A stretch of 64,000 nt of DNA from Candidatus Coatesbacteria bacterium. GTDB lineage: Bacteria; RBG-13-66-14; B26-G2; JAUVZD01. The notes under the pieces were generated by a model. It ran no database searches. It was not told the DNA's origin and was given only the letters and a program-made list of their open reading frames with translations. Both the position numbers and the translations under genes were made by a program. The stretch lies in assembly GCA_030602715.1 (NCBI GenBank), contig JAUVZD010000001.1, forward strand, positions 270,213 to 334,212, given 5' to 3'. Of the stretch, positions 15,969-41,556 are shown piece after piece. Numbering within the stretch: the stretch's first letter is position 1; each line of letters begins with the position of its first letter.

Positions 15969-15982
15969 TCTCAAAAAAGACC

Positions 15983-16065: not shown

Positions 16066-16107
16066 GCTAAAGCAGGTCAAGAAAATTCCACTTTTAAAGG
16101 ATGGGAT

Positions 16108-16635
16108 ATGAACAAGCTCACAACCTTCATCTCCGCCCTGGTCTTAACCATTATGGTGATAGTCGCAAGCCCACTCAAGGCGTCGGGCGAGGATGGTGGC
16201 AAGAGTCCAGCAGACCAAGCCAGGGAGCATTATGAGGTTCTAACCTCCATCGTTGAAGGAGCCATCGCCGCTCTTGACGGCATGTATGCCCTTGACGAAA
16301 CGTTGGCTGATGGCACCGTTACTTTGGAATCAGCCAGATCCAAAACCATAGAGCTGAAGGAGGAGTTTCTGTCCCGGAGGGCGGAGCTTGATCACATTGA
16401 TGTGCCAGAGGACTTTGTGGAAGTGTTCAACATGTTGCTCAACTGGATGAATCAAGCCGAAAAGACCTTTGACCTTATGCTGGTAACCATTGAGAAAGAG
16501 ACCGCCGAAGCTGAGGAGTTTGATAAAGCCCTGGACGATTTCTACTCCGCCTGGGATTTGGAAATTCAGATGTATGATGAGATGACCGAAGCCTATGTCC
16601 AGCAGATGGTTGAGTTTGGCTTGGACCTCTACTGA
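16108..16635 (+). CDS. Paralogous secreted protein family, member 3 (unknown function)
   Basis: Signal peptide without Cys (SPase I type). REHYEVLTSIVEGAIAALDGMYALDETLADGTVT, VPEDFVEVF, NWMNQAEKTFDLMLVTIEKE, FYSAWD, AYVQQMVEFGLDLY. Closest to member 2. Confidence 0.7.
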   Translation: MNKLTTFISALVLTIMVIVASPLKASGEDGGKSPADQAREHYEVLTSIVEGAIAALDGMYALDETLADGTVTLESARSKTIELKEEFLSRRAELDHIDVPEDFVEVFNMLLNWMNQAEKTFDLMLVTIEKETAEAEEFDKALDDFYSAWDLEIQMYDEMTEAYVQQMVEFGLDLY

Positions 16636-16709
16636 TGACCTTAGTGGACCTCAGCAATGACCCCCCTGAATACAATCTGAAAAAGTATTTTGAAATATGC
16701 AAAAAAATA

Positions 16710-16738
16710 TTGATTAAGCTCCCGAATTGTAGTATTTT
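16710..16738 (+). promoter_or_regulatory. Sigma-70-like promoter TTGATT-17-TATTTT upstream of paralog 4
   Basis: TTGATT 16710-16715, spacer ending in GAATTGTAG, TATTTT 16733-16738. The spacer 3' half (GAATTGTAGTA) recurs in the paralog-5 promoter. Confidence 0.4.
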
Positions 16739-16783
16739 ATTTGCGATCTTTTCAAATTATCCTCATCACAGAAAGGATGCACT

Positions 16784-17371
16784 ATGAAGAAATTTATAAT
16801 TATCTTTTCCGTCCTGCTACTGCTGGTCTCTCTATCGGGCTGTGAGAGGGTCAAGCAGATTTTCGGCAAAGGAGAGATTGAACTTGACCCCGCCACTCAG
16901 GCAGAAGAACATTACAATCAGCTCAAACCACTGGTAGAGAACGCCGGTCAGTGCCTGGACTATCTCTATGAGCTTGACGAACAGCTGAGTGACGGCACAG
17001 TCGCTCTGGACTACGCCCTTCAGCGCACCAATGAGCTGAAACAGAACTACGCCATGCAGAGGGATACCCTCAAAACGGTCAAGGTGCCCGCCGATTTCCA
17101 GAACGAATGGAAGATGACTCAGCAGTGGTTTGACGAAGGATACAGACTATTTGACCTGATGGCAGACACAATCTATAAGGAAAAAGCCGGCGGGGGACCC
17201 CCCTTTGAGAAATCTATGGATGTCTTCTACGCCGCTCAGGACAGAGAGTTTCAATTCTACGAAAATATGACCGCCGCCTATGACGCCAAGATGGAATCGT
17301 ATGGCTTCACAATGGAAGATACACCAGGGGGCGGTGACTTCCCCAAAGCCATACCCAAAGGTGGAAAGTAG
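16784..17371 (+). CDS. Paralogous secreted lipoprotein family, member 4 (unknown function)
   Basis: Lipobox LSGC. EEHYNQLKPLVENAGQCLDYLYELDEQLSDGTVA, VPADFQNEW, QWFDEGYRLFDLMADTI, FYAAQD, AYDAKMESYGF. Gly-rich C-terminal extension. Confidence 0.7.
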   Translation: MKKFIIIFSVLLLLVSLSGCERVKQIFGKGEIELDPATQAEEHYNQLKPLVENAGQCLDYLYELDEQLSDGTVALDYALQRTNELKQNYAMQRDTLKTVKVPADFQNEWKMTQQWFDEGYRLFDLMADTIYKEKAGGGPPFEKSMDVFYAAQDREFQFYENMTAAYDAKMESYGFTMEDTPGGGDFPKAIPKGGK

Positions 17372-17405
17372 TAGAAGAGTAAAAGCGCCCATCAAAGCAA
17401 CCACG

Positions 17406-17428
17406 AGCCCCCTTTCTCGGGGGCTTTC
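17406..17428 (+). terminator. Rho-independent terminator-like hairpin after paralog 4
   Basis: agccccc-tttctc-gggggct followed by ttc; same stem style as the paralog-2 terminator. Confidence 0.55.
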
Positions 17429-17462
17429 TGCGAAGTTCTTCATCCCAATATCGCTAAAAGGA

Positions 17463-17491
17463 TTGATTGGGCGACTGAATTGTAGTAATCT
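17463..17491 (+). promoter_or_regulatory. Sigma-70-like promoter TTGATT-17-TAATCT upstream of paralog 5
   Basis: TTGATT 17463-17468, spacer ending in GAATTGTAG, TAATCT 17486-17491. Confidence 0.4.
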
Positions 17492-17536
17492 ATCTGCACT
17501 CGCTCTTCAGTTGAAAAATAAGGACCGAACGAGCCA

Positions 17537-18061
17537 ATGACGGTCAAAGGTAATAAAAGGAAATTTGTCATCTGCCTGATGTTCCTGGCAGTGGCTTGGG
17601 CTTCATCGGTAAAAGCCCAGGAAGATGATGCGGTGGAGCTGATGGAGCGGATTACCGCCATCGCCACCCACTACGACCAGGTAACCCCCCTGGTGATGGA
17701 CGCTGTGGAGTTGATGGCAGAGTTATATACATATGAGGAACTGCTCCACTCCGACCCTGCCATCGCCGGTCAATCGGTTAAAGAGATTAAGGACCGTTTG
17801 CAAACCCTGACCTCAGAGATTCATACTATAAGCCCGCCCCCGGAGGCTGAGGATACCTTCAACAAACTGCTCCTCTGGTTTGAGAACCTGGAGGAGGTTA
17901 TTGACCTCTTTCTGGTGACCGCCTCGCCAGACTATTCGTCACCTGTGGAGTATCGTCTCTCCGCCTACCGGGAGTCCAAAGCCTGCGAGGCGAAGCTCTT
18001 CACCGAGGCTAAAGATGCGTATATCCAGCTCCTCGGCGATTACGGCATACCACTGGAATAA
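17537..18061 (+). CDS. Paralogous secreted protein family, member 5 (unknown function, most diverged)
   Basis: Signal peptide (FVICLMFLAVAWASSVKA). Family core is recognisable but diverged: THYDQVTPLVMDAVELMAELY, PPEAEDTFNKLLLWFENLEEVIDLFLV, AYIQLLGDYGIPLE. Confidence 0.6.
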   Translation: MTVKGNKRKFVICLMFLAVAWASSVKAQEDDAVELMERITAIATHYDQVTPLVMDAVELMAELYTYEELLHSDPAIAGQSVKEIKDRLQTLTSEIHTISPPPEAEDTFNKLLLWFENLEEVIDLFLVTASPDYSSPVEYRLSAYRESKACEAKLFTEAKDAYIQLLGDYGIPLE

Positions 18062-28640: not shown

Positions 28641-28761
28641 CTTAAAGCTTTCCCCTCAGATATTTTAGCCATATTACGATTTTTCATATGGCAGGTCAAG
28701 GCTATATGATTTGGAGGTTCTACGCCAGACGGAGCCGATCATTGCGGATTATGTGATGACC

Positions 28762-28790
28762 TTGACACCCACTCAAGCATATGATACTCT
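28762..28790 (+). promoter_or_regulatory. Candidate promoter (TTGACA-17-TACTCT with extended-10 TG) for the 28.8-39.1 kb operon
   Basis: TTGACA 28762-28767; TGATACTCT 28782-28790; first gene starts at 28829 with RBS agaggagg. Confidence 0.35.
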
Positions 28791-28828: not shown

Positions 28829-30970
28829 ATGAGGCAAAGGTTAATCCCTTTTAAGGAAAAGGGACGTGTTCTCTTAATATCCGGCATAGCTATCATCATC
28901 CTGTTTACGATACTTGCCAACCGAACCTCATTCTGTGCCCAGATGCAAGGGGAACTCCTCTCCCACCTGCCGGACGGCGGATTTCTATACATTGACATCG
29001 TCTCCCTTCCTAAGATGATTATCACCACCCTGGAACAGCCCCACATGATAATACTGCAGGAGGAGAGCGGCGATGAGAGCATCACCGAGTTGATAGACGC
29101 CGCCCTGGACGAAGTCCTCCCCGGGCTTTCTCTGGAGAAGCTATTGCTCCTCTTCCCCGCTGAGTTCTCCTGTGGGGCTTACTACGAAGAAGAGGATTTC
29201 CAATTTATAGTTGCGGTAGATATTGTAAGTGGTGATGAATTCAACCCCCTCCTCAAGCGGTTTCTGGCACTTGGAGAAGAGAAGGGGGGTATCAAAGTAA
29301 AAGAGAAGACCAAAGGTGATTTCCTCTTCTATGAGCTGAAGGGAGATGCAAATGTGGTATATCTTGCCTTTGACGACTCCGTTCTGCTGGTAAGCACAAC
29401 CAAGGAGATGGTTGAAGGAGCGATGAAAAACTTCGCCGAAGCCAAGACCCCCCTAAACGACAATTCCGCCCTGACCAGCGCAAGAGAAAATCTCTCCGAT
29501 GGGGCTGACTATTATCTCCTCTGCGACGGGCAAAAGCTGAGTGAGCTGATATTGGGAAAATTCCCTTCCGAGGAGGAAGGGGGCGAGGTGGAAGAAGCCC
29601 TCCTGTCCGGCCTGACGGAATGGCTGAACACCTTCCTGCAAGACCTGAGATGTATCTCCCTGAGCTTCCGCTTCCCTCCCCAGGAAGCCTCCGCAGTTGA
29701 CCTGCTCACCCCCAGCGACGAGGTTTTCCTCCAGCTCCAGCCCGGCTCGGAAACCGCCGCCCAATTCGGAATGTTGCAGGGGAAAGACCGTCCCAAATGG
29801 ACGCCGCAAGTTGTCCCCGGCGAGACGGTGATGTTATCGTGCAGCACCGGCGAGGAGACTATCACCCCAAAATCCCAAAATTACCTCTCCTATCTCCTCT
29901 CCTTCCTCCCCTTCCCCCGAAGCGAAGCGGAGCTGATGAACGAGGTCCTTGAGCTGCTCCCCACCCCGCCGGAGCTCGCCTTTCTCTCGGATGAGGACCT
30001 GACCGCCGGTCTGGGGCAGGAGACAGCCACCGCCTATATGCCCGGTCCTGACCCATTAAGCTATCTGTTCTCGTTGACCGACAAAGCAGAAGCCAACAGG
30101 TTCTCCCTGCTCCTCTACTCGTTGAAGGAGCCGGGGGACTTTGAAGGGAAGTATCTTGCCCATCTGAACCAGTCGGAACTGGTGGAGGTGGAGACCGTCC
30201 CCTACCTGGGGAAAAATATCTACCACCTGACCCCCACCGAGTCGGCTTATAGGATAAACGAGGAGGCGGTTACCGACTGGATTAACAAGATAATGGGGGA
30301 GATGGGCACAGGCCTCTTTGAGAGGGACGAATGGGACGTGTCGGAGAAGGAGTTCGGCTGGAATATATATGGACAAATAAGTGAGCTGTTCCCCATCATG
30401 GAATCCTATGTCTTCTTCCTCTCGGACTTTATGGTTATAGCCTACGACCCCGATGTCGCCCAGAAGACCATCGCCCACTACATGGAAGGCGATGTCCTGG
30501 CTCAGAACCCCCAGTTTCAGAGATACCTGGCTCATGTTGATGAGGATAACTATTCCCTCTTCTATGTCTCCACCTTCTTCCCCCCAGAGCGCTACGACCT
30601 TCCCGACGACGAAGACCTGGAACAGATGACCACCATGAAAGAAAAACAGACCAAGCCGATAGATGACGACGGTGATGAGGCGCCCTTCACCGAAGGCTAT
30701 CAGTTTTCCTATCAACACCAGCCGACTGAGCTCACCGAAATATGGCAGATGTATTCCGGTGAAGGCTTCATCATCAGCACCACTCTGGGAGCAAACTCTC
30801 TAAAGATAGAGGGTTACCCCAAAGCCTTTGAGAAGCTCTTCATGTCCATCCTCCTCTCAGCCTTCTTCGCCGTCTCTGAGCTGGACGCTTTTGAGTTTGA
30901 CATTGAAGAGAGCGAGGAATATGTCATTGAAGATGAACTCCCTCCAACAAATCCCCTCCACGAAGAATAG
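28829..30970 (+). CDS. Hypothetical membrane-anchored acidic protein (first gene of operon)
   Basis: 713 aa; single N-terminal TM (VLLISGIAIIILFTILA); very acidic C-terminal third; no catalytic motif recognised. Confidence 0.5.
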   Translation: MRQRLIPFKEKGRVLLISGIAIIILFTILANRTSFCAQMQGELLSHLPDGGFLYIDIVSLPKMIITTLEQPHMIILQEESGDESITELIDAALDEVLPGLSLEKLLLLFPAEFSCGAYYEEEDFQFIVAVDIVSGDEFNPLLKRFLALGEEKGGIKVKEKTKGDFLFYELKGDANVVYLAFDDSVLLVSTTKEMVEGAMKNFAEAKTPLNDNSALTSARENLSDGADYYLLCDGQKLSELILGKFPSEEEGGEVEEALLSGLTEWLNTFLQDLRCISLSFRFPPQEASAVDLLTPSDEVFLQLQPGSETAAQFGMLQGKDRPKWTPQVVPGETVMLSCSTGEETITPKSQNYLSYLLSFLPFPRSEAELMNEVLELLPTPPELAFLSDEDLTAGLGQETATAYMPGPDPLSYLFSLTDKAEANRFSLLLYSLKEPGDFEGKYLAHLNQSELVEVETVPYLGKNIYHLTPTESAYRINEEAVTDWINKIMGEMGTGLFERDEWDVSEKEFGWNIYGQISELFPIMESYVFFLSDFMVIAYDPDVAQKTIAHYMEGDVLAQNPQFQRYLAHVDEDNYSLFYVSTFFPPERYDLPDDEDLEQMTTMKEKQTKPIDDDGDEAPFTEGYQFSYQHQPTELTEIWQMYSGEGFIISTTLGANSLKIEGYPKAFEKLFMSILLSAFFAVSELDAFEFDIEESEEYVIEDELPPTNPLHEE

Positions 30971-31381
30971 ATGAGAGGAATCGCTAAAAAGATGAAGAGT
31001 GCTATAATAATAATCTTCTCCCTCCTGCTGGTTCCCGCAACCATCTGGGGACAGGAGATGGTGATAGATACATTTTACGCTTATCCCAATCCCTTCTCCT
31101 GCGAAGACATCCTGAATATAGTGCTGAAATTCACCGGTCAGCCCCACACAGTTTCTGCAACCCTGCAGGTATTTGACCAGGTTGGTGACCTGGTAACCAC
31201 AATAGCCGAGGACCGGCAGGTTACTTCCAATACAAAAGTAAGAATCACCTGGGATGGATTGGACGAGAACGGCGAACGACCCAATCCGGGGGGCTACTTC
31301 ATCCGACTGCAAATGGAAGCTGACACCGGGGAGAGGATAAGTGAGATCTACAAGGTGGTATATTTAGAGGTCAGCAAATGA
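30971..31381 (+). CDS. Small secreted protein consisting only of a FlgD-Ig-like / T9SS C-terminal-sorting-domain-like module
   Basis: Signal peptide, then YAYPNPFS..VLKF.....VSATLQVFDQVGDLVTTI......VRITWDGLDENGERPNPGGYFIRL, matching the YPNPF...vyD..G..V...W.G.d..G....sGvYfyrL pattern of Por_Secre_tail/FlgD Ig-like domains. Starts 1 nt after the upstream stop. Confidence 0.65.
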   Translation: MRGIAKKMKSAIIIIFSLLLVPATIWGQEMVIDTFYAYPNPFSCEDILNIVLKFTGQPHTVSATLQVFDQVGDLVTTIAEDRQVTSNTKVRITWDGLDENGERPNPGGYFIRLQMEADTGERISEIYKVVYLEVSK

Positions 31382-33060
31382 AGCCCCAATCCACAATAAC
31401 CCTCCTCCTCCTGTGTATCAGCTTGGCGCTCCCCTCACAGTCATCCGCTTATGTGGGCGGGCAAAGCGACCTATTCTACGGCGCTAGTGGGGGGCGCCCC
31501 ACCGCCATGGGCGGTGCCTACATCGCCCTCTCCGACGACAGCGTGGGCTTCAATTATAATCCTGCGGGGATAGCCTTCATCACCCAACATCATATAAACT
31601 TTTCCTACTCACTGCGCTTCACGGAGGGAAGTGATTTTCAGGAGTTCTCCTATGCCGGACCGATACCACCCATAATCAACCTGGGCGCATCTCTGGAGAG
31701 GCTTTCCTTCGGGGAGGTGGAGTGGCGCAATCCCGGTGGTAAGCTGGTGGGAAGTTACACCAGCTCAAATATCCGTTTCTCCTTCGGCGGGGCAAGGGCG
31801 TTTTTTGGCATCTTCTCCCTGGGTGGAAAGGTCTCCTACGAGAAATTTAGTGCCGCAGATCAGGAAGATTCACACCCGGACATCAGTATAGGCTTCCAGT
31901 TGCGCCCCGGGGCAGACCCGGAGGAGGGCAGAAGGGGAAACTTCTGCCTGGCTGGCGTCCTTTACGGCACCAACCCCCTGCAGGGGAGCTTCGGCGCCTC
32001 CTTCACTTATGATATAGCAACCCTCAGCGGTCAGGTGGACGCCATCACCGAAGGAATTTATCACCTCCGCTTCGGCGGGGAGCTCTCACTCATAGATTCC
32101 TTTGCCATCCGTGCTGGGTTGGACGACTCAAGTCCCACCTTCGGTATAGGCGTGAAGGCAGGCGGTATCTCCATTGATTACTCCTACGCTTACAAGGAGC
32201 TGGGGACCATTCACACCGCAACGCTGGGTTTCGTCTTCGGTCCTGACCTAACCAGTATCGCCCTCAGGAAGAAACGGATTAAACTGTTGTTGCAGGAGGG
32301 GAAATACCATCTGCAAGTGAAAAATTATACCCTGGCAATAGAGCGCTTTGAGAACGTCCTCTCCTGGGATGAGGAGAACTACGAAGCCAGGGAGCTGTTG
32401 CAGAAAGCCCGTTTGGAGATGCTCCTTGAGGAGAGAGGGGGACTTCTGGAAGCCGGGGAGTATGAGCGGGCTCTGGAGCTCCTCCATCAGGCGAAAGACC
32501 TGGACCCGCAGAACAAGCGCATAGACGGTCACATTGAGGCAACGCTGGAGGCTATCCGCAAACGGGAGTGGGCATACATTGAGCAAGAACATATCTGGGA
32601 GCTTTACGCACAAGCCAGTGAACAGGTCAGAAAGCTCAACCTGTATAGAGCGGTTGGAATTTTAGAGGAGATACTTGAGCTTGACCCCGACAACTCATTC
32701 ATCAAAGACCGCTTAAAGGAAGTGCGGCTGAAGATTACGCCAGTCGCTGTAGTGCCCACGGTGGAGATTACCGCAGACATAATCTCCACCTATGAAGCGG
32801 GAGTGGCGGCGATAGACTCCGGTCGGCTGAACGAAGGCATAAGCCTTCTGGAGGGGGTATATTCCCAGGTGGGCGGATATGAGAGCACGGTCAGCAAACT
32901 CAACGACGGCTACTTCTATCTGGGCATGGACAGCTACAGCCGAGGTCGCCTGAGGGAGGCTATCGGCTACTGGCAGAGGATTCTGGCTCTGGACCCGGGG
33001 GACGCCCAGGCAACTAAACTGATAGACAAAGCCCAGAAGGAATTAGCGGGGATGGAATAG
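31378..33060 (+). CDS. Putative outer-membrane beta-barrel-like protein (FadL/PorV-like N-terminal motif) fused to C-terminal TPR-like repeats
   Basis: Signal peptide; N-terminal half Gly/aromatic-rich with GGRPTAMGGAYIALSDDSVGFNYNPAGIAF (FadL/OMPP1-type motif); C-terminal ~250 aa helical repeats (LDPQN, LDPDN, LDPGD periodicity). ATGA overlap with the upstream gene. Confidence 0.45.
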   Translation: MKPQSTITLLLLCISLALPSQSSAYVGGQSDLFYGASGGRPTAMGGAYIALSDDSVGFNYNPAGIAFITQHHINFSYSLRFTEGSDFQEFSYAGPIPPIINLGASLERLSFGEVEWRNPGGKLVGSYTSSNIRFSFGGARAFFGIFSLGGKVSYEKFSAADQEDSHPDISIGFQLRPGADPEEGRRGNFCLAGVLYGTNPLQGSFGASFTYDIATLSGQVDAITEGIYHLRFGGELSLIDSFAIRAGLDDSSPTFGIGVKAGGISIDYSYAYKELGTIHTATLGFVFGPDLTSIALRKKRIKLLLQEGKYHLQVKNYTLAIERFENVLSWDEENYEARELLQKARLEMLLEERGGLLEAGEYERALELLHQAKDLDPQNKRIDGHIEATLEAIRKREWAYIEQEHIWELYAQASEQVRKLNLYRAVGILEEILELDPDNSFIKDRLKEVRLKITPVAVVPTVEITADIISTYEAGVAAIDSGRLNEGISLLEGVYSQVGGYESTVSKLNDGYFYLGMDSYSRGRLREAIGYWQRILALDPGDAQATKLIDKAQKELAGME

Positions 33061-33063
33061 AAG

Positions 33064-34656
33064 ATGGCGGAGCCGAAAAATACAATCGCTTTGGTGAACG
33101 AGAAAGATAAGCCCAAAGAACGCTATATTTCTCTACGCTTACAGATTGCCGCCGCAACCGTCTTGCTAATAGTGGCGACAACCATCACTCTGGGCACTTT
33201 CTCCCTGCGCCATGAACGCCAAGCACTCCACCGCGAGTTCATCGCCCGCATTCTTGCCCAGACCCGCTCAGTGGCGGGGACCAGCTCCGGCTCCATTCTG
33301 CTGGATATAGCGGAAACATATACCCAGCCCCTTGCCCTCAGTACTCTGGAGGAGAACGAGGATTGCATTGATATCACCATCGTGAACAAGGAGAATATTA
33401 TCTACGGGGCAAAAGAGACTTTTCTTCTGGGCAAACCCTACCAACCGGAGCAGGACCTGGCTGCTATTGGGGGGGATTTCGGACAACTCAGCGGTGAGAC
33501 CGTCGCCGAGAAAGGAGACCTGATATATATCAGTGTCCCCATAAGAAAGGGGGAGATGGGAACGATAGGTTACGTCTATGCTTCCTACAGCAGTGCCAAC
33601 CTAACCCATATGCTCACCCTGGCCCGAAACAACCTGATAATTATCTCCCTGATCGTCCTGGTGGTGGGAATATTCGCCGCTTATTTTGTCTCCATGATGC
33701 TGGTAAGTCCGGTGCGCAAGCTGGCAAATGCCGCCCGCCAGGTGGGGATGGGAAACTTTGATGTTACCGTGGAGGCAAAAACACGCAACGAACTGGGGCA
33801 GTTAGCGAACACCTTCAACCGTATGGCAGAGAGTCTGAAAGAAGCCCAGAAGATGATTTTGGAGAAGAACCGCATGGAGCAGGAGCTGACCATCGCCCGC
33901 CAACTGCAGAAGAGCTTCCTGCCCAGCATATTCCCCCACTTGCAGGGGGTGGATATCTATGCCCGTTGCCGCACCGCTCAGGCGGTAGGCGGAGACTACT
34001 ACGATTTCCTGGAGCTGGATGAGGACAACATCGGGCTATTGATAGCGGATATCTCCGGCAAGGGTTTATCCGGTCTCATAATCATGAGCATGGTGCGCAA
34101 TGTTCTCCGCTCGCAAGCCCGCAGGTATCAGTCGCCACGTCGGGCGTTGATAGAGACCAACACCCTGCTCACCCCGGACTTTCAAAAGGGGCGCTTCGTC
34201 ACCGCCTTCCTGGGGACCTACCACCGCCCCACCCGACTGCTCACCTACGCCAATGCCGGACACACTCCCCTGCTCTACTACCGTGCCGATGACAACATCG
34301 TTGCCATGCTGGAGAAATCGGGGCGACCTATAGGTCTCTTCTCCAGCGAGGTCTTTGAAGAGCGCCTGGAGGAAGGACAGCTGGAGCTTTCGGAGAACGA
34401 CCTCATCTTACTCTTCACCGACGGGATAACCGAGGCGATTAACAACGCCGGTCAACTATACGGCGAAAGCCGTCTATTGAAGCTCATCCCCCACCTCAAG
34501 GACCTTGATGCAAAAAGCATAGTGGAGGAGGTCTTCAACAATGTACACCGCTTCCGGGGCAAAGGCGGCACCTTAAGCGACGACATAACTATTATGGTTA
34601 TGAGAACCACAGCCCAAAGTGAGCTGGAAAAGCTCTATACAGCCCAGGAGATATAA
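33064..34656 (+). CDS. Membrane sensor PP2C phosphatase (two TM + periplasmic domain + HAMP + SpoIIE/RsbU-type PP2C)
   Basis: TM1 AAATVLLIVATTITLGTF, TM2 LIIISLIVLVVGIFAAYFV; HAMP (SPVRKLANAARQVGMGNFDVTVEAKTRNELGQLANTFNRMAESL); PP2C motifs VGGDYYDF, LLIADISGKGLSG, FTDGITEA. Confidence 0.85.
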   Translation: MAEPKNTIALVNEKDKPKERYISLRLQIAAATVLLIVATTITLGTFSLRHERQALHREFIARILAQTRSVAGTSSGSILLDIAETYTQPLALSTLEENEDCIDITIVNKENIIYGAKETFLLGKPYQPEQDLAAIGGDFGQLSGETVAEKGDLIYISVPIRKGEMGTIGYVYASYSSANLTHMLTLARNNLIIISLIVLVVGIFAAYFVSMMLVSPVRKLANAARQVGMGNFDVTVEAKTRNELGQLANTFNRMAESLKEAQKMILEKNRMEQELTIARQLQKSFLPSIFPHLQGVDIYARCRTAQAVGGDYYDFLELDEDNIGLLIADISGKGLSGLIIMSMVRNVLRSQARRYQSPRRALIETNTLLTPDFQKGRFVTAFLGTYHRPTRLLTYANAGHTPLLYYRADDNIVAMLEKSGRPIGLFSSEVFEERLEEGQLELSENDLILLFTDGITEAINNAGQLYGESRLLKLIPHLKDLDAKSIVEEVFNNVHRFRGKGGTLSDDITIMVMRTTAQSELEKLYTAQEI

Positions 34657-34680
34657 AAGCATATGCGGAGGATATAGTAA

Positions 34681-35148
34681 ATGCCAAGGGACAATAAGAA
34701 TATTCAGGAATACTCAATTCGGATAGGAAGCAACCCCAAATCGCTGGGACATGCCCGAGACTTCGTGATTCAATTGCTAAAAGAAAGCGGTTTTTCCAAC
34801 GACGAGATAAGCATTCTGGAGCTGGTGACCTATGAGGCTTGTGCCAACTCCATAGAACACGCTTACAGCAATCAACCGGATTTCTATGTAGATTTGAATA
34901 TCCAGATTCGCGGGCGGGAGGTGTTCATCAAAATTGAGGATAGCGGTCAGGAATTCCAACCCGGGGATATCCACCCGCTGGACATCGGCGATCGCATAGA
35001 CCGCCGTGCCAGCAGGGGTATGGGCTTGCCGTTGATGAAGACTTTGATGGATGAGGTGACAATTGAACGCACATTTGACAACCATAATCGCATTACCATG
35101 AGAAAGGATTTCTCCAAAAAAAAGAAAGCGCCTAAAGGAAAAACTTAG
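34681..35148 (+). CDS. RsbW/SpoIIAB-like anti-sigma regulatory factor (GHKL serine kinase)
   Basis: N-box LVTYEACANSIEHAY, G-box RGMGLPLMKTLMDEV; 155 aa; 24 nt after the phosphatase gene. Confidence 0.85.
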   Translation: MPRDNKNIQEYSIRIGSNPKSLGHARDFVIQLLKESGFSNDEISILELVTYEACANSIEHAYSNQPDFYVDLNIQIRGREVFIKIEDSGQEFQPGDIHPLDIGDRIDRRASRGMGLPLMKTLMDEVTIERTFDNHNRITMRKDFSKKKKAPKGKT

Positions 35149-35156
35149 GAGGAATA

Positions 35157-37160
35157 GTGAGAGAGCTGGATATATCTCTGAGTAAAAAAACGGAAGAGGG
35201 AATCTACACCTTTAAGCTGGCCGGGAGTTTGGGGGTAGAGGGCTCCCGGGGACTGACGAAATTGTTTGACGCCTGCCTTAAGGAGAAAGTCTATAGCATT
35301 ATCATTGACCTCTCCCAGGTTGATTTCATCTCCAGCGCCGGGATGGGGGTATTCCTCTCCGTTGTCGGTGAACTGAGAGAACACAATGGGGATATTATCT
35401 TCATGGCTATGCCCGATAAAATCAGAAAGATATTCTCCTCCCTGGATGTTCTGGACTACTTTGAAAACTATAAGAGCGAGGATAAAGCCAGAACCGCTCT
35501 AAGGAAGAAGGGGAAAAAGACAACCGGGGAGTTAGCAAAAACAAAGAAAGCTTTAAGCAAATTAGACCATTTGCAGTTCATCTCCGAATCTACCAAAAGT
35601 ATCTCCCTGGAGAAGAAAAGCGTTCTGGTCATCCCCTCCATCATGGAATCGCTGATGAGCCACCTGGATGTGGAAGATTTACTCTTTGTACCCATCTCCA
35701 TACCACTGCGCCAGGAGTTTGACTTCATCAGTCTGGGCCGGGGCAATCTGCGGGAGATAACCGTGGAGGAGACCCAGCAGTTAAGCTCTCTTTTAAAAAA
35801 CTACCAGGCGCCGGTTCAGCTGTCCGAACTACCCGATGTCTATGAGGATATCTATGTAAAGCTGGCTCGTACCGGCTGTGAATTGGTAGTGCCCATCTTC
35901 TCCGAGGAGATCCTCTCCTCCCTGCTCTTTTTAGGGCAAAGGGGGTTGGGAGCCCGCTATCAAAAAGAAGACATGCTCATGCTCCAAACCATAGCCGGAA
36001 TGCTCGGCTCCGCCATTCAAAACCATCGTCTGCAGAAGCGCCTGGATGATGCAGTCTCCTCCGAAGAGCTGGAGAACGCCCATGTTCGCCTGGAGAGGAA
36101 GGTGCAAGAACTGGAGACCTTGTTCATCGTCAGCCAACAACTGGGCAGTTCCATGGAAGTTGATGAACTGCTCAACAACTTCCTGGTGGTAACTGTGGGG
36201 CAGATGGGCACCAACAAAGGGCTTATCTTCCTCACCGACGAGGGGGATTACAATCTGACCTGCAAAGCCTTCAAGGGTCAATTCGCCCGCATTCCCTTGG
36301 ATGTCACCCTCCCCATAGACGGCAAGCTGGTCCAGTTGGTATCAAGCGCAAATCACCCCATTAAGGCGCACGACAAAGATGTCTTCAACAAGTTGAGTTC
36401 CGACGAGCGTAAGTTCATCACCGACAACGACATCTCCCTTCTGGGAGCCATCAAATATAAAGGCGAGCTTCGGGGCTTGAACGCTGTAGGTTCCAAGGTG
36501 AGCAAGAAGGAGTATACTACCGAGGATTTTGACCTCTTCTCCATCCTCAATTTCCAGGCAGCCACCGCCCTGGAGAATGTCAAACTCTTTGACAAGCTGA
36601 AAAATGTTTACAGCGGGGTGATGAGGGCTCTGGTGACCGCACTGGAAGCGAAAGACCCCCACTACAAGGGACATACCGAACGGGTCACCCGCCTATCCGC
36701 CCAGATGGGGGAAAAGTTGGGTTTCAATAATGAGAGACTGCGCAACCTCATCTTCGGCGCTGTATTGCACGATATCGGTAGAGTGGGGGTGCGGGAGTCC
36801 ATCCTCAATAAGGTTGAACCCCTGACCGAAGAGGAGAAGGAGGAACTCATGCGCCATCCGGTCATCGGCACGGAGATACTCAAGGAGGTTGAATTCTTCA
36901 AGGGTTCATTGGCTATAGTCCGCAACCATCACGAGAACTACGACGGTAGCGGCTATCCCGATGGTCTCGCCGGTGAATCCATCCCCATTGAAGTGCGCAT
37001 CGTGACCCTAGCCAACGCCTACGAGGCGATGACCTCCACCCGCCGTTATCGGGGCGCATTGACCAATAAAGAGGCTATAGAGGAGATCCGCAGAAATGCA
37101 GGCACCCAGTTTGACCCCAACCTGGCAAAAATCTTCATCAACCTGATATCCAGCAAGTAA
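35157..37160 (+). CDS. STAS (anti-sigma-antagonist-like) - GAF - HD-GYP fusion protein (putative phosphorylation-controlled c-di-GMP phosphodiesterase)
   Basis: N-terminal STAS with phospho-acceptor context IIIDLSQVDFISSAGMGVF; central GAF-like region; C-terminal HD-GYP with KDPHYKGHTERV, LHDIGRVGV (HD) and HHENYDGSGYPDGL (GYP). Confidence 0.85.
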   Translation: MRELDISLSKKTEEGIYTFKLAGSLGVEGSRGLTKLFDACLKEKVYSIIIDLSQVDFISSAGMGVFLSVVGELREHNGDIIFMAMPDKIRKIFSSLDVLDYFENYKSEDKARTALRKKGKKTTGELAKTKKALSKLDHLQFISESTKSISLEKKSVLVIPSIMESLMSHLDVEDLLFVPISIPLRQEFDFISLGRGNLREITVEETQQLSSLLKNYQAPVQLSELPDVYEDIYVKLARTGCELVVPIFSEEILSSLLFLGQRGLGARYQKEDMLMLQTIAGMLGSAIQNHRLQKRLDDAVSSEELENAHVRLERKVQELETLFIVSQQLGSSMEVDELLNNFLVVTVGQMGTNKGLIFLTDEGDYNLTCKAFKGQFARIPLDVTLPIDGKLVQLVSSANHPIKAHDKDVFNKLSSDERKFITDNDISLLGAIKYKGELRGLNAVGSKVSKKEYTTEDFDLFSILNFQAATALENVKLFDKLKNVYSGVMRALVTALEAKDPHYKGHTERVTRLSAQMGEKLGFNNERLRNLIFGAVLHDIGRVGVRESILNKVEPLTEEEKEELMRHPVIGTEILKEVEFFKGSLAIVRNHHENYDGSGYPDGLAGESIPIEVRIVTLANAYEAMTSTRRYRGALTNKEAIEEIRRNAGTQFDPNLAKIFINLISSK

Positions 37161-37228
37161 TCCATCAATTCAGAGTATTGTTGGATAAAAGATAAATCTC
37201 ACCTCAATTCTTTTAAAGGGAGAAATAG

Positions 37229-37819
37229 ATGGGCACTCACAGATACTCCTGGATAGTAAAACTCTCGCTAGTAGTACTTATCGCAACGCTCACCTTCTGG
37301 GTGGGGGCATCGTTCAGCAAAGACGACGGACAAATATCCGACAAGACCAAGACCCGCATTCAGGAATTGCTGGAGGAGGGAAATCGTTTTGTCTTGGAGG
37401 GGGAATACCGTAAAGCGGAGGAGAAGTTCAAGAAGATTTTAGAGATAGACCCCGACAATCCCATGGCTCACAACAATCTGGGATTGATGTATAAGGAGAA
37501 GGAACTTTACCACTCCGCCAAGGCGGAGTTTGAGCTGGCACTTGAGGTAATGCCAAACTATTATAAAGCGCTGAACAACCTGGGCAACACCTATTTCGCC
37601 ATGGGACGCTACGGTTCAGCAAGGGATGCCTACCTCAAAGCCCTGGAGGTAAAACCCGATTTCTCCGAGGCTCACTGGAACCTTGCCCTCACCTACGAAA
37701 AGCTGGACAACAATCTTCTGGCATTGAAGGAGTGGCGCAGTTTCATCGCCAACAGCGACGGTTCAGCCAATGTTTCTCTGGCAAAAGACCACATTGATAG
37801 AATACTTGAGGAGATGTAG
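37229..37819 (+). CDS. Membrane-anchored TPR-repeat protein
   Basis: N-terminal anchor LSLVVLIATLTFWVGA; three to four canonical TPRs (AHNNLGLMYKEKELYHSAKAEFELALEV, YKALNNLGNTYFAMGRYGSARDAYLKALEV). Confidence 0.8.
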   Translation: MGTHRYSWIVKLSLVVLIATLTFWVGASFSKDDGQISDKTKTRIQELLEEGNRFVLEGEYRKAEEKFKKILEIDPDNPMAHNNLGLMYKEKELYHSAKAEFELALEVMPNYYKALNNLGNTYFAMGRYGSARDAYLKALEVKPDFSEAHWNLALTYEKLDNNLLALKEWRSFIANSDGSANVSLAKDHIDRILEEM

Positions 37820-39067
37820 ATGCGCCGTTCTCTCATCACAACCGCCCTCCTGCTCCTCTCCCTGACCGCAGTAAGTGCGGGTCAGACTATTGACACCATG
37901 GATGTCCTCTCCACAGCCGAGGAAGTGGTTGGATATGAGAAAATCTCCGACAGGTCTCCACGAGATGTCTTCGCCACCGCCGATGACGTGGCGGTCTTCT
38001 ATAGCAACCCAGATGCGGTCATGGATACTATCGGCGTCTATGAGGATTTCATATACCGGAAATATGGTGTTGTTTCTGGAGATGAGGTAATCTACTCCCT
38101 GGGCGAGAAGGATGACCTTATGGAGGTCTATATCGCAGAGCTGAAAAACGCCGAGTCAGAGGAGCACCGCTGTGTCATCCTCACATATCACCGTTTTGAG
38201 CCCTTCCCCCGAAACGCCTACGAGGTCTCCCCGGCGGTCTTTGACCAGCAGATGGCATACATCGCCGAGAACGGCTACACAGTAATATCATTGGACCAAC
38301 TCCTGGAGGCAATCTATCTTCAGGACCCTGACCTGCTACCGGAAAATTCGGTGGTCATCACCGTGGACGACGGCTTCCGTTGTTTCCTGACCCGGGCGGT
38401 GCCCATCCTTCAAAAATACGGCTTCACCGCCACCCTCTTCGTCTATACCGCATACGTCAATGCCGGTGGTCGCTCCCTCACCTGGGACGAACTGCGCCTG
38501 GTAGAGAGTATGGGCTTCTCCGTTGAGTGCCACTCCTATACCCATCCCAACTTCAACAACTTTAAAAAATACGGCTCCATCAAAGGCTCCTACAACCAGT
38601 TCGCCTACCACGAACTGCTGGACTCAAAGAAGTTGATTGAGAAGAACCTGGAGAAAGAGGTCAAGTTCTTCTGCTGGCCCTATGGGGAGTTAAACGACTA
38701 CGCCATGCACCTGGCAATCAAGTGCGGTTATGAGAGCACGGTGACGGTCAAGGGGGGAGCAGTGGGGCTCAAATCCAACCCCCTATACCTCAATCGCTTC
38801 GGTGTCTATTCCAAGACTACTATGGAGACCTTTAAAAAGCGCCTGGAGGGAAAGATAGTCTATCAGTATGAAGAGGACAAAGGAACCTACTTCAGTGATA
38901 AATATTACGGCATCACCACCCACTTCTACAAGTTCCCCGAAGAGCTACCACCAGCGGCGGACATAGACGCCTTGTGGGACGCCATCTTTGAGGAGGAAGA
39001 GATTGACCTATCGCCTGCGGAAGGGGAGGTGCCGCCGGGTTTTGAGGGTGAACTCATCCTTGAATAA
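37820..39067 (+). CDS. Secreted polysaccharide deacetylase (CE4/NodB-homology) family protein
   Basis: Signal peptide; VVITVDDGF (NodB motif 1), ECHSYTHPN (His-His metal motif), FFCWPYGE. Confidence 0.8.
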   Translation: MRRSLITTALLLLSLTAVSAGQTIDTMDVLSTAEEVVGYEKISDRSPRDVFATADDVAVFYSNPDAVMDTIGVYEDFIYRKYGVVSGDEVIYSLGEKDDLMEVYIAELKNAESEEHRCVILTYHRFEPFPRNAYEVSPAVFDQQMAYIAENGYTVISLDQLLEAIYLQDPDLLPENSVVITVDDGFRCFLTRAVPILQKYGFTATLFVYTAYVNAGGRSLTWDELRLVESMGFSVECHSYTHPNFNNFKKYGSIKGSYNQFAYHELLDSKKLIEKNLEKEVKFFCWPYGELNDYAMHLAIKCGYESTVTVKGGAVGLKSNPLYLNRFGVYSKTTMETFKKRLEGKIVYQYEEDKGTYFSDKYYGITTHFYKFPEELPPAADIDALWDAIFEEEEIDLSPAEGEVPPGFEGELILE

Positions 39068-39094: not shown

Positions 39095-39131
39095 AAAAGC
39101 CGGCGCCCCGAACTTCCGGGGCGCCTTGTTG
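39095..39131. terminator. Bidirectional rho-independent terminator between convergent operons
   Basis: aaaaaagcc-GGCGCCCCG-aacttc-CGGGGCGCC-ttgttgtat: A-tract, perfect 9-bp GC stem, T-rich tail. Confidence 0.65.
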
Positions 39132-39155: not shown

Positions 39156-39806
39156 TTACTCCTCTTCCTTCTTCTCCGTCTTCTTGAAGGGCTCATAAAC
39201 ACCGCCTTCCCTCGGCGGCTGCAACATGTGCTTCAACATGGTATTGCCGGCGCGGATATCCTGGATAACGCTCAGGATTTCCCGCTGAAAGGTCTCCTCA
39301 AAGATCAGGAACCTGCCCAGCTGGATATCATCCAGCACCTCCCCCATTGAAACGAATATATCAGCTTCCTGCCCCACCAGACTGGCTTTGGTCGCCAGAA
39401 GCTCCTCCGTCTTGTCCTTCACTTCATCCACATCCGGTTCGGCGTTGTTCAATAAGTCCAGCAACTCCCTTATCGTACCCTCCCGCTCAATGAAATGCTC
39501 CTGGCGTACATCCTCCAATTGTCTGTATAATGGGAAGAATGTGGTTGACTGCTCCACGGAGAGCCCCAGCACTTCTGTCATACGCCAGATCTTTATCGCC
39601 TCCAGCCGCTCCTCGGCATCCCTGACCTTCTCCTCAAATTCCGCCCCAAATCCAAGGTCATAGGCGCCCTCTGAAGCGCCCCAATAGCCCCAGTAAAACT
39701 CCTGGATGAAGGTGTCCTCCTGGGCAAATCCCACGGAGGCGATTAAGACCATAAAGGAAAGGGTGAGGAATGCAACCACAATCCGAGGGCGATTATCCAT
39801 AGCCAA
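39156..39806 (-). CDS. Periplasmic CpxP/Spy-like (LTXXQ-motif) protein, tentative
   Basis: Signal peptide; helical and acidic; LSVEQSTTFFPLYRQLEDVRQ resembles the LTXXQ motif. Last gene of the ECF sigma/anti-sigma operon. Confidence 0.45.
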   Translation of the reverse strand: MAMDNRPRIVVAFLTLSFMVLIASVGFAQEDTFIQEFYWGYWGASEGAYDLGFGAEFEEKVRDAEERLEAIKIWRMTEVLGLSVEQSTTFFPLYRQLEDVRQEHFIEREGTIRELLDLLNNAEPDVDEVKDKTEELLATKASLVGQEADIFVSMGEVLDDIQLGRFLIFEETFQREILSVIQDIRAGNTMLKHMLQPPREGGVYEPFKKTEKKEEE

Positions 39807-39886
39807 CCTCCTGGAATTCCCGTTGTAAATCTACACAAATCAGGTACAATCTATGGGAAGAATAAAAGCTGGAATTTAATTTTTGC

Positions 39887-40978
39887 CTACTCTCCCAAAA
39901 TGGCAAATACTTTGGTTCTCTCCTCATGGCTCAGGCTGCCTATCACCACATATATTGACGAACCATTCCTTCTGTTGGTGAACTCCTCCAGGAGCACGTT
40001 CTCCAGATAGACCGCATCCTCAGGGGAGATTGATGAGGAGAAGGTAACATAGGTCCCTTCACCGCTGATCTCTGTGCCGGAAGTGACCACATAGGGTAAA
40101 CCGCTACGCACCACCATCTCATCAACCACCAAAGGCAACATCGTGCCCGATATCATCCTCGCAGTAACCGGCATAACCGGGTCCTTTACCGCATAAAAAT
40201 CGGTGATATCCCCATCGGATACCCGGAAGAACCCACCGGAAGAGGAGACGCTGTCCATCAGGTCCCTATCAAATGTTATCACGGGGGAGACATCCGTCTC
40301 CGGGACAGCCATCTCTGTGAAGGGAACCTCCTCCCGGGAATAACGCCCAAAAGTATACTCTAGCTCGTCAGAGACAACCCCTTCTGCGGGAGCGTGGTAA
40401 ATATCAGCACCGCTCAATGCCCCAAGGGTTGTAGATACCGCCTCCTTCTCAGCGGTTAAAGTATGCGGCGGCTTAACGTGCACAAGGGTGGGAACCGGCG
40501 CCTCTTCCTCGGTAACCAGGCCGGGAGCCTCCTCCGTCTTGGGCTTTAACCCTTCAAAATCCCTCGTCTCCAGGGATGAAATATCAAGACCCTCAGGCTC
40601 CTGCGTGTAAGAAAGAACATAGGGAAGAATGTAGAAGCCGGCAAGTCCCACCAGGATAATACCGGCTATTGTTGCCGCTGCAAGGAGCGTCCTGGGCTTC
40701 AAGAGGGGCTTCATTGACAGCACCCTGCCGGCACCCCTCCCCTCAGCTTTAGCCCTCTCTCTCACCCGGATGGCTAGAGTGGACATAAACAGCACCCCGG
40801 CGGAAGCGACTTCCATATCGCCCACCATAGAGAGAAGCTCTCTACCCTGCCTCAAGTAATCACGGCAGAGGGGACATTCCCTCAGATGCTCCTGGACCGA
40901 AAGGGGAAGCTCCTCCTCACTGGTGAGGGTCTCGTCTATAAGATACTGTATTTTTTCACACTTCATATCACTCACCAA
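39887..40978 (-). CDS. Membrane-spanning anti-sigma factor with N-terminal zinc-finger motif
   Basis: CEKIQ..(x)..HLRECPLCRDY (H-x3-C-x2-C), single TM (LLAAATIAGIILVGLAGFYIL), periplasmic C-terminal domain; immediately follows and overlaps the ECF sigma gene. Alternative start MKCEKI at 40966. Confidence 0.6.
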   Translation of the reverse strand: MVSDMKCEKIQYLIDETLTSEEELPLSVQEHLRECPLCRDYLRQGRELLSMVGDMEVASAGVLFMSTLAIRVRERAKAEGRGAGRVLSMKPLLKPRTLLAAATIAGIILVGLAGFYILPYVLSYTQEPEGLDISSLETRDFEGLKPKTEEAPGLVTEEEAPVPTLVHVKPPHTLTAEKEAVSTTLGALSGADIYHAPAEGVVSDELEYTFGRYSREEVPFTEMAVPETDVSPVITFDRDLMDSVSSSGGFFRVSDGDITDFYAVKDPVMPVTARMISGTMLPLVVDEMVVRSGLPYVVTSGTEISGEGTYVTFSSSISPEDAVYLENVLLEEFTNRRNGSSIYVVIGSLSHEERTKVFAILGE

Positions 40979-41556
40979 TCTGTTTCACCCAAAGCGGCGA
41001 CCGAGTCGCCCAGAATCTTGCGCAGTTTGCCCAAGGCAAATGCTCCACTGGCCTTCACCGAGCCTTCACTTATCCCCAGAGTTGAAGCGACCTCGGCGAC
41101 GGAGAGCCCGTTAAGATGGCGCATTTGAAACACCTCTCGTTGCCTGCTGGGCAGGGAATCTATCGCCCGGCACAGTCGCTCATACACCTGCCTCGCCACC
41201 GCCCTCCTGAAAGGATTATCTATACTCTGGTGGAAATTGATGACCACTTCCAGGGAGACCTCCTGTTCCCGACGAATCACCTTACGCAATCGATTCTTGG
41301 CGGTGTTGACCGCGATGCGTAGAAGCCAGGTCTTGAAACTGGATAATCCCTTGAAGGTATGGGCTTTGCGGTAAAGTTTGAAGAAGACATCCTCGGTAAC
41401 TTCCTCGGCGGCTTCACGATTGCGCAGGATGGATATCACTGTGGCAAAGACCGCCTCCCTGTACTTTGCTACCAGTGCCTCAAAGGCGGTCTCATCACCA
41501 CCTAAGAACTCCACAAGAAGTCTGTCATCGCCGACCCCGGGCGTGCGCCCCGCCAT
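40972..41556 (-). CDS. ECF-type RNA polymerase sigma-70 family sigma factor
   Basis: Region 2 (FEALVAKYREAVFATVISILRNREAAEEVTEDVFFKLYRKAHTF) and region 4 HTH (QREVFQMRHLNGLSVAEVASTLGISEGSVKA). Confidence 0.9.
   Translation of the reverse strand: MAGRTPGVGDDRLLVEFLGGDETAFEALVAKYREAVFATVISILRNREAAEEVTEDVFFKLYRKAHTFKGLSSFKTWLLRIAVNTAKNRLRKVIRREQEVSLEVVINFHQSIDNPFRRAVARQVYERLCRAIDSLPSRQREVFQMRHLNGLSVAEVASTLGISEGSVKASGAFALGKLRKILGDSVAALGETDW

Follow-up and report, generated by a model that had tools for sequence, protein, structure and literature searches.

The 64-kb window analyzed here, a stretch of contig JAUVZD010000001.1 of Candidatus (Ca.) Coatesbacteria to which all positions below refer, contains three consecutive genes, all on the + strand, that encode a membrane-bound PP2C phosphatase, a small GHKL kinase, and a protein of 667 amino acids (aa) in which a STAS domain is fused to two GAF domains and an HD-GYP domain. 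Partner switching, which employs a phosphatase, a kinase and a STAS protein of these kinds, classically frees sigma factors. Judging from protein and gene comparisons, the wiring of the present switch to the GAF-HD-GYP protein, and not to a neighboring sigma factor, is well supported, as the original prediction had it, by the domain assignments, synteny, split versions of the fusion, co-duplication of the kinase and STAS genes, and the failure to find a group-3 sigma factor gene in the window or in related loci. The reading that we favor, and to which we give an even chance, is that of a partner-switching-type phospho-switch in which the antagonist, the STAS domain, and its output, an HD-GYP phosphodiesterase with tandem GAF domains, are parts of one polypeptide, encoded inside an envelope/polysaccharide operon.

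The phosphatase, the kinase and the fusion protein

The open reading frames (ORFs) of the three genes coincide exactly with those originally predicted and are as tightly spaced as was claimed, with gaps of 24 and 8 nt between them. The genes and the domains of the fusion protein are as follows.

33064-34656, + strand: operon gene 4, PP2C phosphatase, 530 aa, with a transmembrane (TM) region followed by sCache, HAMP and PP2C regions
34681-35148, + strand: operon gene 5, GHKL kinase, 155 aa, HATPase_c_2
35157-37160, + strand: operon gene 6, STAS-HD-GYP fusion protein, 667 aa, STAS-tether-GAF-GAF-HD-GYP
35157-35501, + strand: STAS domain (residues 1-115), Pfam STAS 4e-13 (residues 9-111)
35511-35567, + strand: flexible tether (residues 119-137), predicted local distance difference test score (pLDDT) below 50 at residues 119-135
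35568-36608, + strand: tandem GAF domains, with GAF-A (residues ~138-300), a long connecting helix (270-331) and GAF-B (335-484)
36615-37160, + strand: HD-GYP domain (residues 487-665), HD_5 4e-38 (residues 492-656), with a non-canonical active site

The PP2C gene follows the preceding gene at a distance of 3 nt, and Shine-Dalgarno sites are present ahead of all three genes. The kinase ATG has a GGAGGA ribosome-binding site 7 nt upstream, and the fusion gene starts with GTG and has an AGGAGG ribosome-binding site that overlaps the kinase stop codon. The three genes are translationally coupled.

The first protein had been described as a membrane sensor with a periplasmic domain, HAMP and a SpoIIE/RsbU-type PP2C phosphatase, and Pfam matches to SpoIIE PP2C (8e-47, residues 320-515) and HAMP (5e-16, residues 208-260) bear this out. 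Two hydrophobic segments (TM1, ~26-48; TM2, ~186-212) enclose a loop of ~135 residues with an sCache-like region (51-183); the match to sCache_3_2 is below the threshold (4e-5, 24.2 bits against a cut-off of 28.4), and orthologues match at E<=1e-5. Among proteins of the PDB, the neighbors of the phosphatase are RssB of Pseudomonas aeruginosa (PA2798), Rv1364c and SpoIIE. The motifs GDYYD (residues 310-314), DISGKG, AGHxP, TDG and DD.T are invariant across seven orthologues, and records of a marine sediment metagenome include a fragment of the window phosphatase.

Assignment of the second protein to the RsbW/SpoIIAB-like GHKL serine kinases likewise stands: it matches HATPase_c_2 in Pfam (6.5e-24), and its best PDB matches are RsbW (6m36, 2e-12) and SpoIIAB (1l0o, 9e-9). 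The best NCBIfam match is RsbW, at 64 bits against an equivalog cut-off of 145, and the SpoIIAB equivalog cut-off is likewise unmet. The N box (E52..N55), the G1 box (D87-x-G89) and the G2 box (G113-x-G115) are conserved in 13 orthologues, and the predicted catalytic motifs of both the kinase and the phosphatase are intact. Orthology of the window proteins with SiaA or WalK-type proteins was rejected, as the NCBIfam matches involved were at the level of HAMP and TM regions and far under the cut-offs. A PADLOC scan gave no match for the PP2C, kinase or fusion protein, and a defence-system reading of the three-gene module was discarded on that ground.

In an AlphaFold2 model, the fusion protein (pLDDT 76.5; predicted template-modelling score, pTM, 0.47; good individual domains) is partitioned into STAS (1-119), the disordered tether (119-137), GAF-A (~138-300), a long helical connector, GAF-B (335-484) and HD-GYP (487-665). 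Pfam supports the STAS-GAF-HD-GYP architecture of the original prediction, with the correction that two GAF domains are present, not one. GAF-B matches GAF_3 (3.5e-8, residues 335-474); GAF-A is below Pfam detection in the window protein, has a GAF fold in the model, and is matched by GAF over residues 160-290 in relatives. The top Foldseek match of the fusion protein is PmGH, followed by PDE2A, PDE5 and PDE6, with their GAF-A/GAF-B/catalytic layout, and by the tandem GAF domains of CyaB2.

The predicted serine context of the STAS domain, which the original prediction regarded as phosphorylatable, is present and conserved. The best PDB alignment of the domain is to SpoIIAA (1auz, 8e-5), and its model superimposes on SpoIIAA in the SpoIIAB complex (1th8_B) with a TM-score of 0.87 and a root-mean-square deviation of 1.8 Å. 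S60 (codon 35334-35336), the second Ser of the FISSAGMG motif, aligns with S58 of SpoIIAA and is the predicted phospho-acceptor. The motif F57-x-S59-S60-A61-G62-x-G64 is invariant in 13 family sequences and also occurs in further genomic copies, and in the model S59 and S60 lie at the N-terminus of helix 60-75, like S58 of SpoIIAA (helix 2). Identity between subclades is 55% for STAS, 51% for HD-GYP, 29% for GAF-B, 20% for GAF-A and 12% for the tether, the length of which varies among family members. That STAS is the domain most conserved between subclades fits a surface recognized by both the kinase and the phosphatase.

The HD-GYP active site

The HD-GYP domain was compared residue by residue with PmGH (PDB 4mcw), to which it aligns at 1.2e-34 over 318 residues spanning GAF-B and HD-GYP, and the codons were verified. 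The ligand list and the mutant data for PmGH are those of Bellini et al. (PMC4159591).

PmGH H189: window H506, kept
PmGH H221/D222: window H538/D539, kept
PmGH H250: window H567, kept
PmGH H276/H277: window H591/H592, kept
PmGH D183: window D500, kept
PmGH HHE..DG.GYP: window 591-601 (H591-H592-E593, D596, G597, G599-Y600-P601), kept and invariant in the family
PmGH R314..K317: window R629-R-Y-R632 (RxYR), kept
PmGH E185 (third-metal ligand): window H502, changed; Y or F in other family members
PmGH D305 (metal ligand): window N620 (codon 37014-37016), changed; also Asn in family members P0002-P0006, P0031 and P0034
PmGH K225: window R542 (codon 36780-36782), changed conservatively; K in close relatives
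PmGH D308: window E623, changed
PmGH KPG: window KVE (552-554), changed; KPG kept nowhere in the family

Thus, the HD and GYP residues survive proper alignment, with HD, HHE..DG.GYP and RxYR all intact relative to PmGH, and H506, H538, D539, H567, H591 and H592 are invariant in the fusion family. The original prediction of a complete HD-GYP domain fails at the five remaining positions (D305 to N620, K225 to R542, D308 to E623, E185 to H502 and KPG to KVE). In the HD-GYP domains aligned from the matches of this analysis, the D305 column is Asp in 178 of 204; in domains outside the family, the K225 column is Lys in 168 of 185, KPG is exact in 72 of 185, and K-x-G is found in most. Family members carry either Asn at D305 together with Lys or Arg at K225, or Asp at D305 together with Tyr or Met at K225. 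The residue at the E185 position (H502, and Y or F in relatives) places the window domain in the Y/F, presumably binuclear, subfamily (PMC4159591). According to the HD-GYP architecture survey, RxY[K/R] is of the cyclic di-GMP (c-di-GMP) type.

In the divergent Coatesbacteria member L014:10001-12043, RRYQ takes the place of RxY[K/R]; the HD-GYP survey ties the RxxQ change to a shift towards cyclic GMP-AMP (cGAMP). By this analogy, substrate specificity within the fusion family may vary.

The invariance of six of the seven binuclear ligands, D183, HHE, GYP and RxYR at 34-40% identity argues for preserved metal chemistry. The domain probably still has its metal centre and may plausibly be catalytic, though perhaps at a low rate or with altered activity; the alternative that it serves as a receptor has to be taken seriously. 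In its full form, that alternative reverses the flow of the signal: the GAF-GAF-HD-GYP part would sense c-di-GMP or another nucleotide bound at an HD-GYP site weakened in catalysis, a GAF ligand, or both, and gate the capture of the kinase by STAS, the other partner of the kinase being the real output and the phosphatase a second, envelope-derived input. In RsbR-type proteins, STAS normally comes with an attached sensor domain, and the STAS partners vary in related loci (histidine kinase or TIR, see below), so the kinase may have other clients. HD-GYP domains can also be pure c-di-GMP receptors, as in DvhD, and the active site is non-canonical in every family member. DvhD, however, lost both HD (to SQ) and HH (to MN), whereas the window family keeps six of seven binuclear ligands along with D183, HHE, GYP and RxYR; the D305A mutant of PmGH, although reduced in activity, still hydrolyzed c-di-GMP (PMC4159591); and the conserved operon encodes no candidate alternative partner for the kinase. 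We consider this reversed scheme unlikely, and a fully degenerate DvhD-like receptor was rejected as the leading interpretation, given that HD and HH are intact in the window protein.

Gene order, related loci and the operon

The gene order outer-membrane-type TPR protein, PP2C, kinase, fusion, TPR protein and deacetylase is kept in the related loci L003-L006, L008 and L011-L013 of Zixiibacteriota and Coatesbacteria, where the fusion proteins are 34-40% identical, and the kinase lies directly upstream of the fusion also in L010 and L014-L016. The proposed co-occurrence of STAS-GAF-HD-GYP with kinase and PP2C neighbors is confirmed in the loci with the full order, and the kinase is found directly upstream of the fusion gene in all subclades but one. 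The complete Coatesbacteria chromosome CP070633 likewise has the fusion operon, and the Zixiibacteriota chromosome CP070674 has the split-gene version described below. The recurrence of this order in several phylum-level lineages, with proteins 34-40% identical, shows that the three-gene arrangement is not a chance one. That the genes merely adjoin by chance or through operon hitch-hiking, with no functional link, could be argued from the subclade in which the fusion gene lacks kinase and PP2C neighbors; against the synteny, the translational coupling, the co-duplication of kinase and STAS, and the intact kinase-substrate motif in STAS, such an account is highly improbable.

Split versions of the fusion occur in other phyla. 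Two loci, L018 of Calditrichaeota and L020 of a second Zixiibacteriota genome, share the upstream context of a giant surface protein, a barrel-TPR protein and an sCache-HAMP-PP2C protein. There, the PP2C gene is followed by a STAS-HATPase_c_2 fused kinase (257-263 aa) and then by a stand-alone STAS protein of 118-126 aa with the motif FISSAGVG. The loci with stand-alone STAS and its neighbors, for which strands are not stated, are these.

L018:8249-11020
L020:9213-10381
L017:7-1933
L021:9242-11843

In L018 and in L017 and L021 of Krumholzibacteriota, the gene after the stand-alone STAS encodes a HisKA-HATPase histidine kinase; the N-terminal GAF domain of the L018 histidine kinase is homologous to GAF-B of the window protein (BLASTP 3e-11), and that of L017 is a weaker match (5e-4). 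This layout suggests partner-switch control of a two-component kinase. Given the split loci in other phyla, the fusion joins two proteins that adjoin elsewhere.

A related stand-alone STAS in an Ignavibacteria metagenome-assembled genome (L019:6206-11953) is followed by a gene for a 1764-aa Pkinase-AAA_16(STAND)-GAF-SpoIIE protein, a very large multi-domain PP2C input.

The kinase and STAS pair has also been co-duplicated in a TIR context (L023:8671-11643; also L024 and L025). The first gene of L023 encodes a 436-aa TIR-HATPase_c_2 protein with a kinase part 61.5% identical to the window kinase; the second, a 132-aa STAS protein 75% identical to the window STAS, with the acceptor motif changed to FVSGDG (S60 to G, A61 to D); and the third, a 379-aa TIR protein. 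PADLOC matches in this cassette are restricted to the TIR parts; the cassette possibly controls TIR effectors in the manner of a partner switch.

Retention of the L023 STAS without the acceptor Ser implies that proteins of this family can function through binding in the absence of phosphorylation. This bears on a stoichiometric switch, in which the kinase would dock on unphosphorylated STAS and directly occlude or activate the GAF/HD-GYP dimer, phosphorylation serving only to release the kinase. RsbW and SpoIIAB, the closest PDB relatives of the window kinase, are binding proteins as well as kinases, and the flexible tether (119-137) would let a STAS-kinase complex reach the catalytic part. 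Such a switch seems rather unlikely in view of the invariance of the acceptor Ser and of the full ATP-binding motifs in all fusion loci, and of the dedicated PP2C that is co-conserved in most of them, which only makes sense if phosphate turnover matters.

No sigma-B/F/28-type (group-3) gene was found in the 64-kb window or in ~20 related loci with up to 10 kb of flank; this classical second partner of the kinase is thus what was looked for there and not found, unlike the phosphatase, the kinase and the STAS antagonist. The nearest sigma factor is of the extracytoplasmic function (ECF) type (194 aa, 40972-41556, - strand), 3.8 kb downstream of the fusion gene and beyond the terminator, so the claim that no sigma gene adjoins the kinase and STAS genes stands. 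The ECF sigma gene overlaps its downstream gene, which encodes a 363-aa protein with a Cys-rich N-terminus, no Pfam match and a putative anti-sigma role, and a gene for a 216-aa secreted protein comes next (trio 39156-41556, - strand). This trio is conserved beside the operon only in the closest relative (L010). Encoded on the opposite strand, past the terminator, with its own overlapping gene, and syntenic only in that relative, the ECF sigma factor was rejected as the partner of the kinase.

Sequestration by the kinase of a sigma-B/F-type factor encoded elsewhere, with the STAS-HD-GYP protein acting as an anti-anti-sigma factor and its enzymatic tail as a parallel output, would make this a canonical anti-sigma system. 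The best family matches of the kinase are indeed the anti-sigma factors RsbW and SpoIIAB, relatives are labeled 'anti-anti-sigma factor' by JGI, and the sigma survey covered the window, 64 kb of a contig of at least 439 kb, and the related loci. The absence of a group-3 sigma gene from all of these loci, the downstream partner that the sole nearby sigma factor has of its own, the distance of the kinase from the RsbW cut-off, and the envelope proteins that make up the rest of the operon render this account improbable.

The operon comprises eight + strand genes (28829-39067) with intergenic spacing of -4 to 68 nt. Besides the three genes described above, it consists of the following.

28829-30970, + strand: operon gene 1, 713 aa, N-terminal hydrophobic anchor/signal, weak Pfam match to DUF3352
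30971-31381, + strand: operon gene 2, secreted 136-aa protein, FlgD_ig / type IX secretion system C-terminal domain (T9SS-CTD)-like; Pfam FlgD_ig 4.8e-6, weak Por_Secre_tail and CHU_C
31378-33060, + strand: operon gene 3, 560 aa, outer-membrane-type, with an N-terminal UPF0164-like beta-barrel (5.9e-7) and C-terminal TPR (TPR_2 1.9e-11)
37229-37819, + strand: operon gene 7, 196-aa TPR protein with an N-terminal anchor/signal, TPR_11 1.4e-22
37820-39067, + strand: operon gene 8, 415-aa secreted polysaccharide deacetylase (CE4), Polysacc_deac_1 4.7e-25
39102-39125, both strands: bidirectional intrinsic-terminator-like hairpin with a 9-10 bp stem and 9 G-C pairs, between convergent genes, closing the operon

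Promoter-like sites lie at 28681-28785, upstream of the 713-aa gene, the stop of which abuts the start of the 136-aa gene; in relatives, its position is occupied by a large FlgD_ig/Por_Secre_tail surface protein. The 136-aa FlgD_ig gene has a syntenic counterpart of 136 aa in L003-L005 and matches also in L012 and L020. The barrel-TPR gene, which overlaps gene 2 by 4 nt, is syntenic in L003-L006, L011, L012, L018 and L020, and both the 196-aa TPR gene (43-70% identity) and the CE4 deacetylase gene, with a start abutting the TPR-gene stop (37-63% identity), are syntenic in L003-L008 and L010-L013. All five non-signalling products of the operon have N-terminal signal or anchor sequences, as read from the translations. 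Because the flanking products are exported envelope/polysaccharide proteins, the partner-switch genes are embedded in the middle of an envelope/polysaccharide operon.

Polysaccharide genes are found near other family members as well, namely, glycosyltransferase and DegT genes downstream in L003 and L006 and a GT2 gene upstream in L001. In the window, an exopolysaccharide export and synthesis locus (53715-58547) encodes GT2, Wza-like Poly_export/SLBB, Wzc-like Wzz-GNVR-AAA_31 and an NAD-dependent epimerase, with the Wza/Wzc export genes at 54.5-57.6 kb. Located ~15 kb downstream of the operon, it is a possible target of c-di-GMP control.

Two further features of the window lie upstream of the operon. 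Five tandem paralogous ORFs (14875-18061, + strand) encode proteins of 165-195 aa with signal/lipoprotein-like N-termini and pairwise identity of 20-56%, for which Pfam gave no family. An 867-aa ORF with no Pfam match (10776-13379, - strand) lies between an asparagine synthase gene and a GlmU-like nucleotidyltransferase gene.

Proposed mechanism, known systems and significance

From the domain identities, motifs, operon structure, synteny, split versions and co-duplication described above, we infer phosphorylation, its sign (activating or inhibiting), the HD-GYP substrate and the physiological target as follows. The GHKL kinase would bind the STAS domain and phosphorylate S60, and the membrane PP2C, set by its periplasmic Cache-like domain via HAMP, would take the phosphate off. 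The phospho-state of STAS would alter its packing against, or its dimerization with, the GAF-GAF stalk, with a possible contribution to the stalk read-out from occupancy of STAS by the kinase, and the activity of HD-GYP towards c-di-GMP, or a closely related molecule, would be turned up or down. In this way, an envelope signal would be turned into a local change of second messenger acting on surface and exopolysaccharide functions encoded nearby.

Several observations weigh against this phospho-switch. All nine canonical active-site residues are found together in none of the 19 family members, compared with 126 of 185 other HD-GYP domains; the mutually exclusive pattern at D305 and K225 and the loss of KPG throughout define an active site that, on alignment, is systematically non-canonical; and in PmGH, K225A and D308A each abolished activity (PMC4159591). 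The P0005/P0006 subclade keeps S59 and S60 and has a GT2 gene upstream, with no kinase or PP2C nearby, and in L014 and L016 the kinase is present without an adjacent PP2C. No STAS-GAF or STAS-HD-GYP contact is claimable because the inter-domain geometry of the AlphaFold2 model is unreliable at its pTM. The hosts of the fusion family are all uncultured organisms. Among the alternatives, the reversed flow carries the most weight, followed by the stoichiometric switch, the sigma factor encoded elsewhere and, last, chance adjacency.

A broader proposition, which we regard as possible and hold to be doubtful, is that of a previously unrecognized plug-in module of FCB-related candidate phyla, made up of a PP2C with a periplasmic sensor, a small kinase of the GHKL type and one STAS lineage read via a family-specific GAF. 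The effectors would be fused HD-GYP domains in Coatesbacteria and Zixiibacteriota and, in Calditrichaeota and Krumholzibacteriota, histidine kinases encoded immediately after STAS, while a recent duplicate would have TIR proteins in their place. The altered HD-GYP would be not a plain c-di-GMP hydrolase but a phospho-gated enzyme or receptor with another nucleotide specificity or metal centre.

The fusion itself is at least uncommon, as was originally suggested. A word-indexed search of 5.8 billion clusters returned 13 relatives of full length, every one from metagenomes. When 1.84 billion representatives (50% identity) were searched exhaustively with a profile, at least seven clusters with the full architecture were among the matches listed (best 150), a ranking in which shorter GAF-less STAS-HD-GYP proteins could be missed; the matches ranked below these seven, among those listed, lack STAS. 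When a STAS-only alignment was run against GTDB species representatives, the fusion was located in Ca. Zixiibacteriota and Ca. Coatesbacteria; the DXS protein encoded in the window, for its part, is closest to Coatesbacteria (63%). A STAS-only word-index search produced 21 candidates and one match, too few to count independent STAS-HD-GYP fusions. The partner domains in the HD-GYP architecture survey include REC, GAF, PAS, GGDEF, Cache, PBPb, CHASE2, DUF3391 and others, and STAS is nowhere mentioned in its main text.

The RsbU-RsbV-RsbW-sigmaB and SpoIIE-SpoIIAA-SpoIIAB-sigmaF systems of Bacillus subtilis are made of the same three parts, that is, a PP2C phosphatase, a small HATPase_c_2 Ser kinase, and a STAS protein with the acceptor Ser where helix 2 begins, and the window kinase and STAS domain are closest in structure to RsbW/SpoIIAB and SpoIIAA. 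Unlike those systems, the window module has no sigma factor in its operon or nearby, its STAS is the N-terminal domain of a 667-aa enzyme and not a free protein of 110 aa, its PP2C, which contains HAMP and a Cache-like domain in the periplasm, is itself a membrane sensor, and its operon encodes envelope proteins.

Partner switching acting on c-di-GMP synthesis is established, as the original prediction noted, for HptB-HsbR-HsbA-HsbD of P. aeruginosa (PMC5085249; HsbA-HsbD) and for SiaABCD (PMC7647112, PMC8457831; SiaC-SiaD). The likeness is that a PP2C and a kinase control a protein, STAS-type in the case of HsbA and STAS-like in that of SiaC, whose target is a c-di-GMP enzyme, either in place of a sigma factor or alongside one. 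What those systems switch is a diguanylate cyclase (GGDEF), which is bound in trans, whereas the output in the window is an HD-GYP domain fused in cis, C-terminal to two GAF domains. HAMP and PP2C are found together in SiaA as well, but the NCBIfam match of the window protein (59.7 bits against a cut-off of 700, in the HAMP region only) is not that of an orthologue, and Pfam identified no DUF1987 or GGDEF gene of a SiaABCD set in the operon.

An N-terminal STAS fused to an enzyme under partner-switching-like phospho-control, again governing an exopolysaccharide layer, is known in All4160 of Anabaena PCC 7120, a STAS-glycosyltransferase controlled by the PP2C HenR and HATPase-type kinases (bioRxiv 10.64898/2026.04.08.717354). 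All4160 differs in its enzyme, a glycosyltransferase, in kinases that are not encoded adjacent to it, and in having no GAF domains. PmGH (4MCW), the top structural match, resembles the window protein across GAF-B and HD-GYP, and GAF-controlled HD-GYP activity has been shown for Tlr0485. The window protein differs from PmGH-type proteins in its N-terminal STAS, its tether and its additional GAF, in its membership of the Y/F (non-E185) subfamily, and in D305N, K225R and the loss of KPG.

The closest precedent in logic is a prediction from gene neighborhoods in Campylobacterota (PMC9239204), in which a periplasmic-sensor PP2C, a stas_STYK protein and STAS lead to a c-di-GMP turnover enzyme. The inferred logic is identical, but in those clusters, which belong to other phyla, STAS is a separate protein and the enzyme is unspecified, whereas the window STAS is fused to its enzyme, and this fusion supplies direct Rosetta-stone evidence for the link that the neighborhood prediction lacks. 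The novelty implied by the original prediction accordingly holds in part: no described STAS-HD-GYP protein was found in the literature, but the logic had been anticipated by the Campylobacterota prediction and the All4160 fusion. The STAS-HD-GYP fusion is truly uncommon and seems not to have been described before, although the concept behind it had been foreseen.

If the favored reading is correct, STAS-HD-GYP would be the first partner-switch link to the degradative side of c-di-GMP signalling, and the covalent connection removes the usual doubt over which components talk to each other. The three proteins form a compact system that could be reconstituted in vitro to follow how Ser phosphorylation of STAS passes through the GAF domains to the catalytic centre, and what role is played there by the Asn at the last HD metal-ligand position. 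In the uncultured sediment bacteria that carry this system, its likely target is the surface and exopolysaccharide apparatus.

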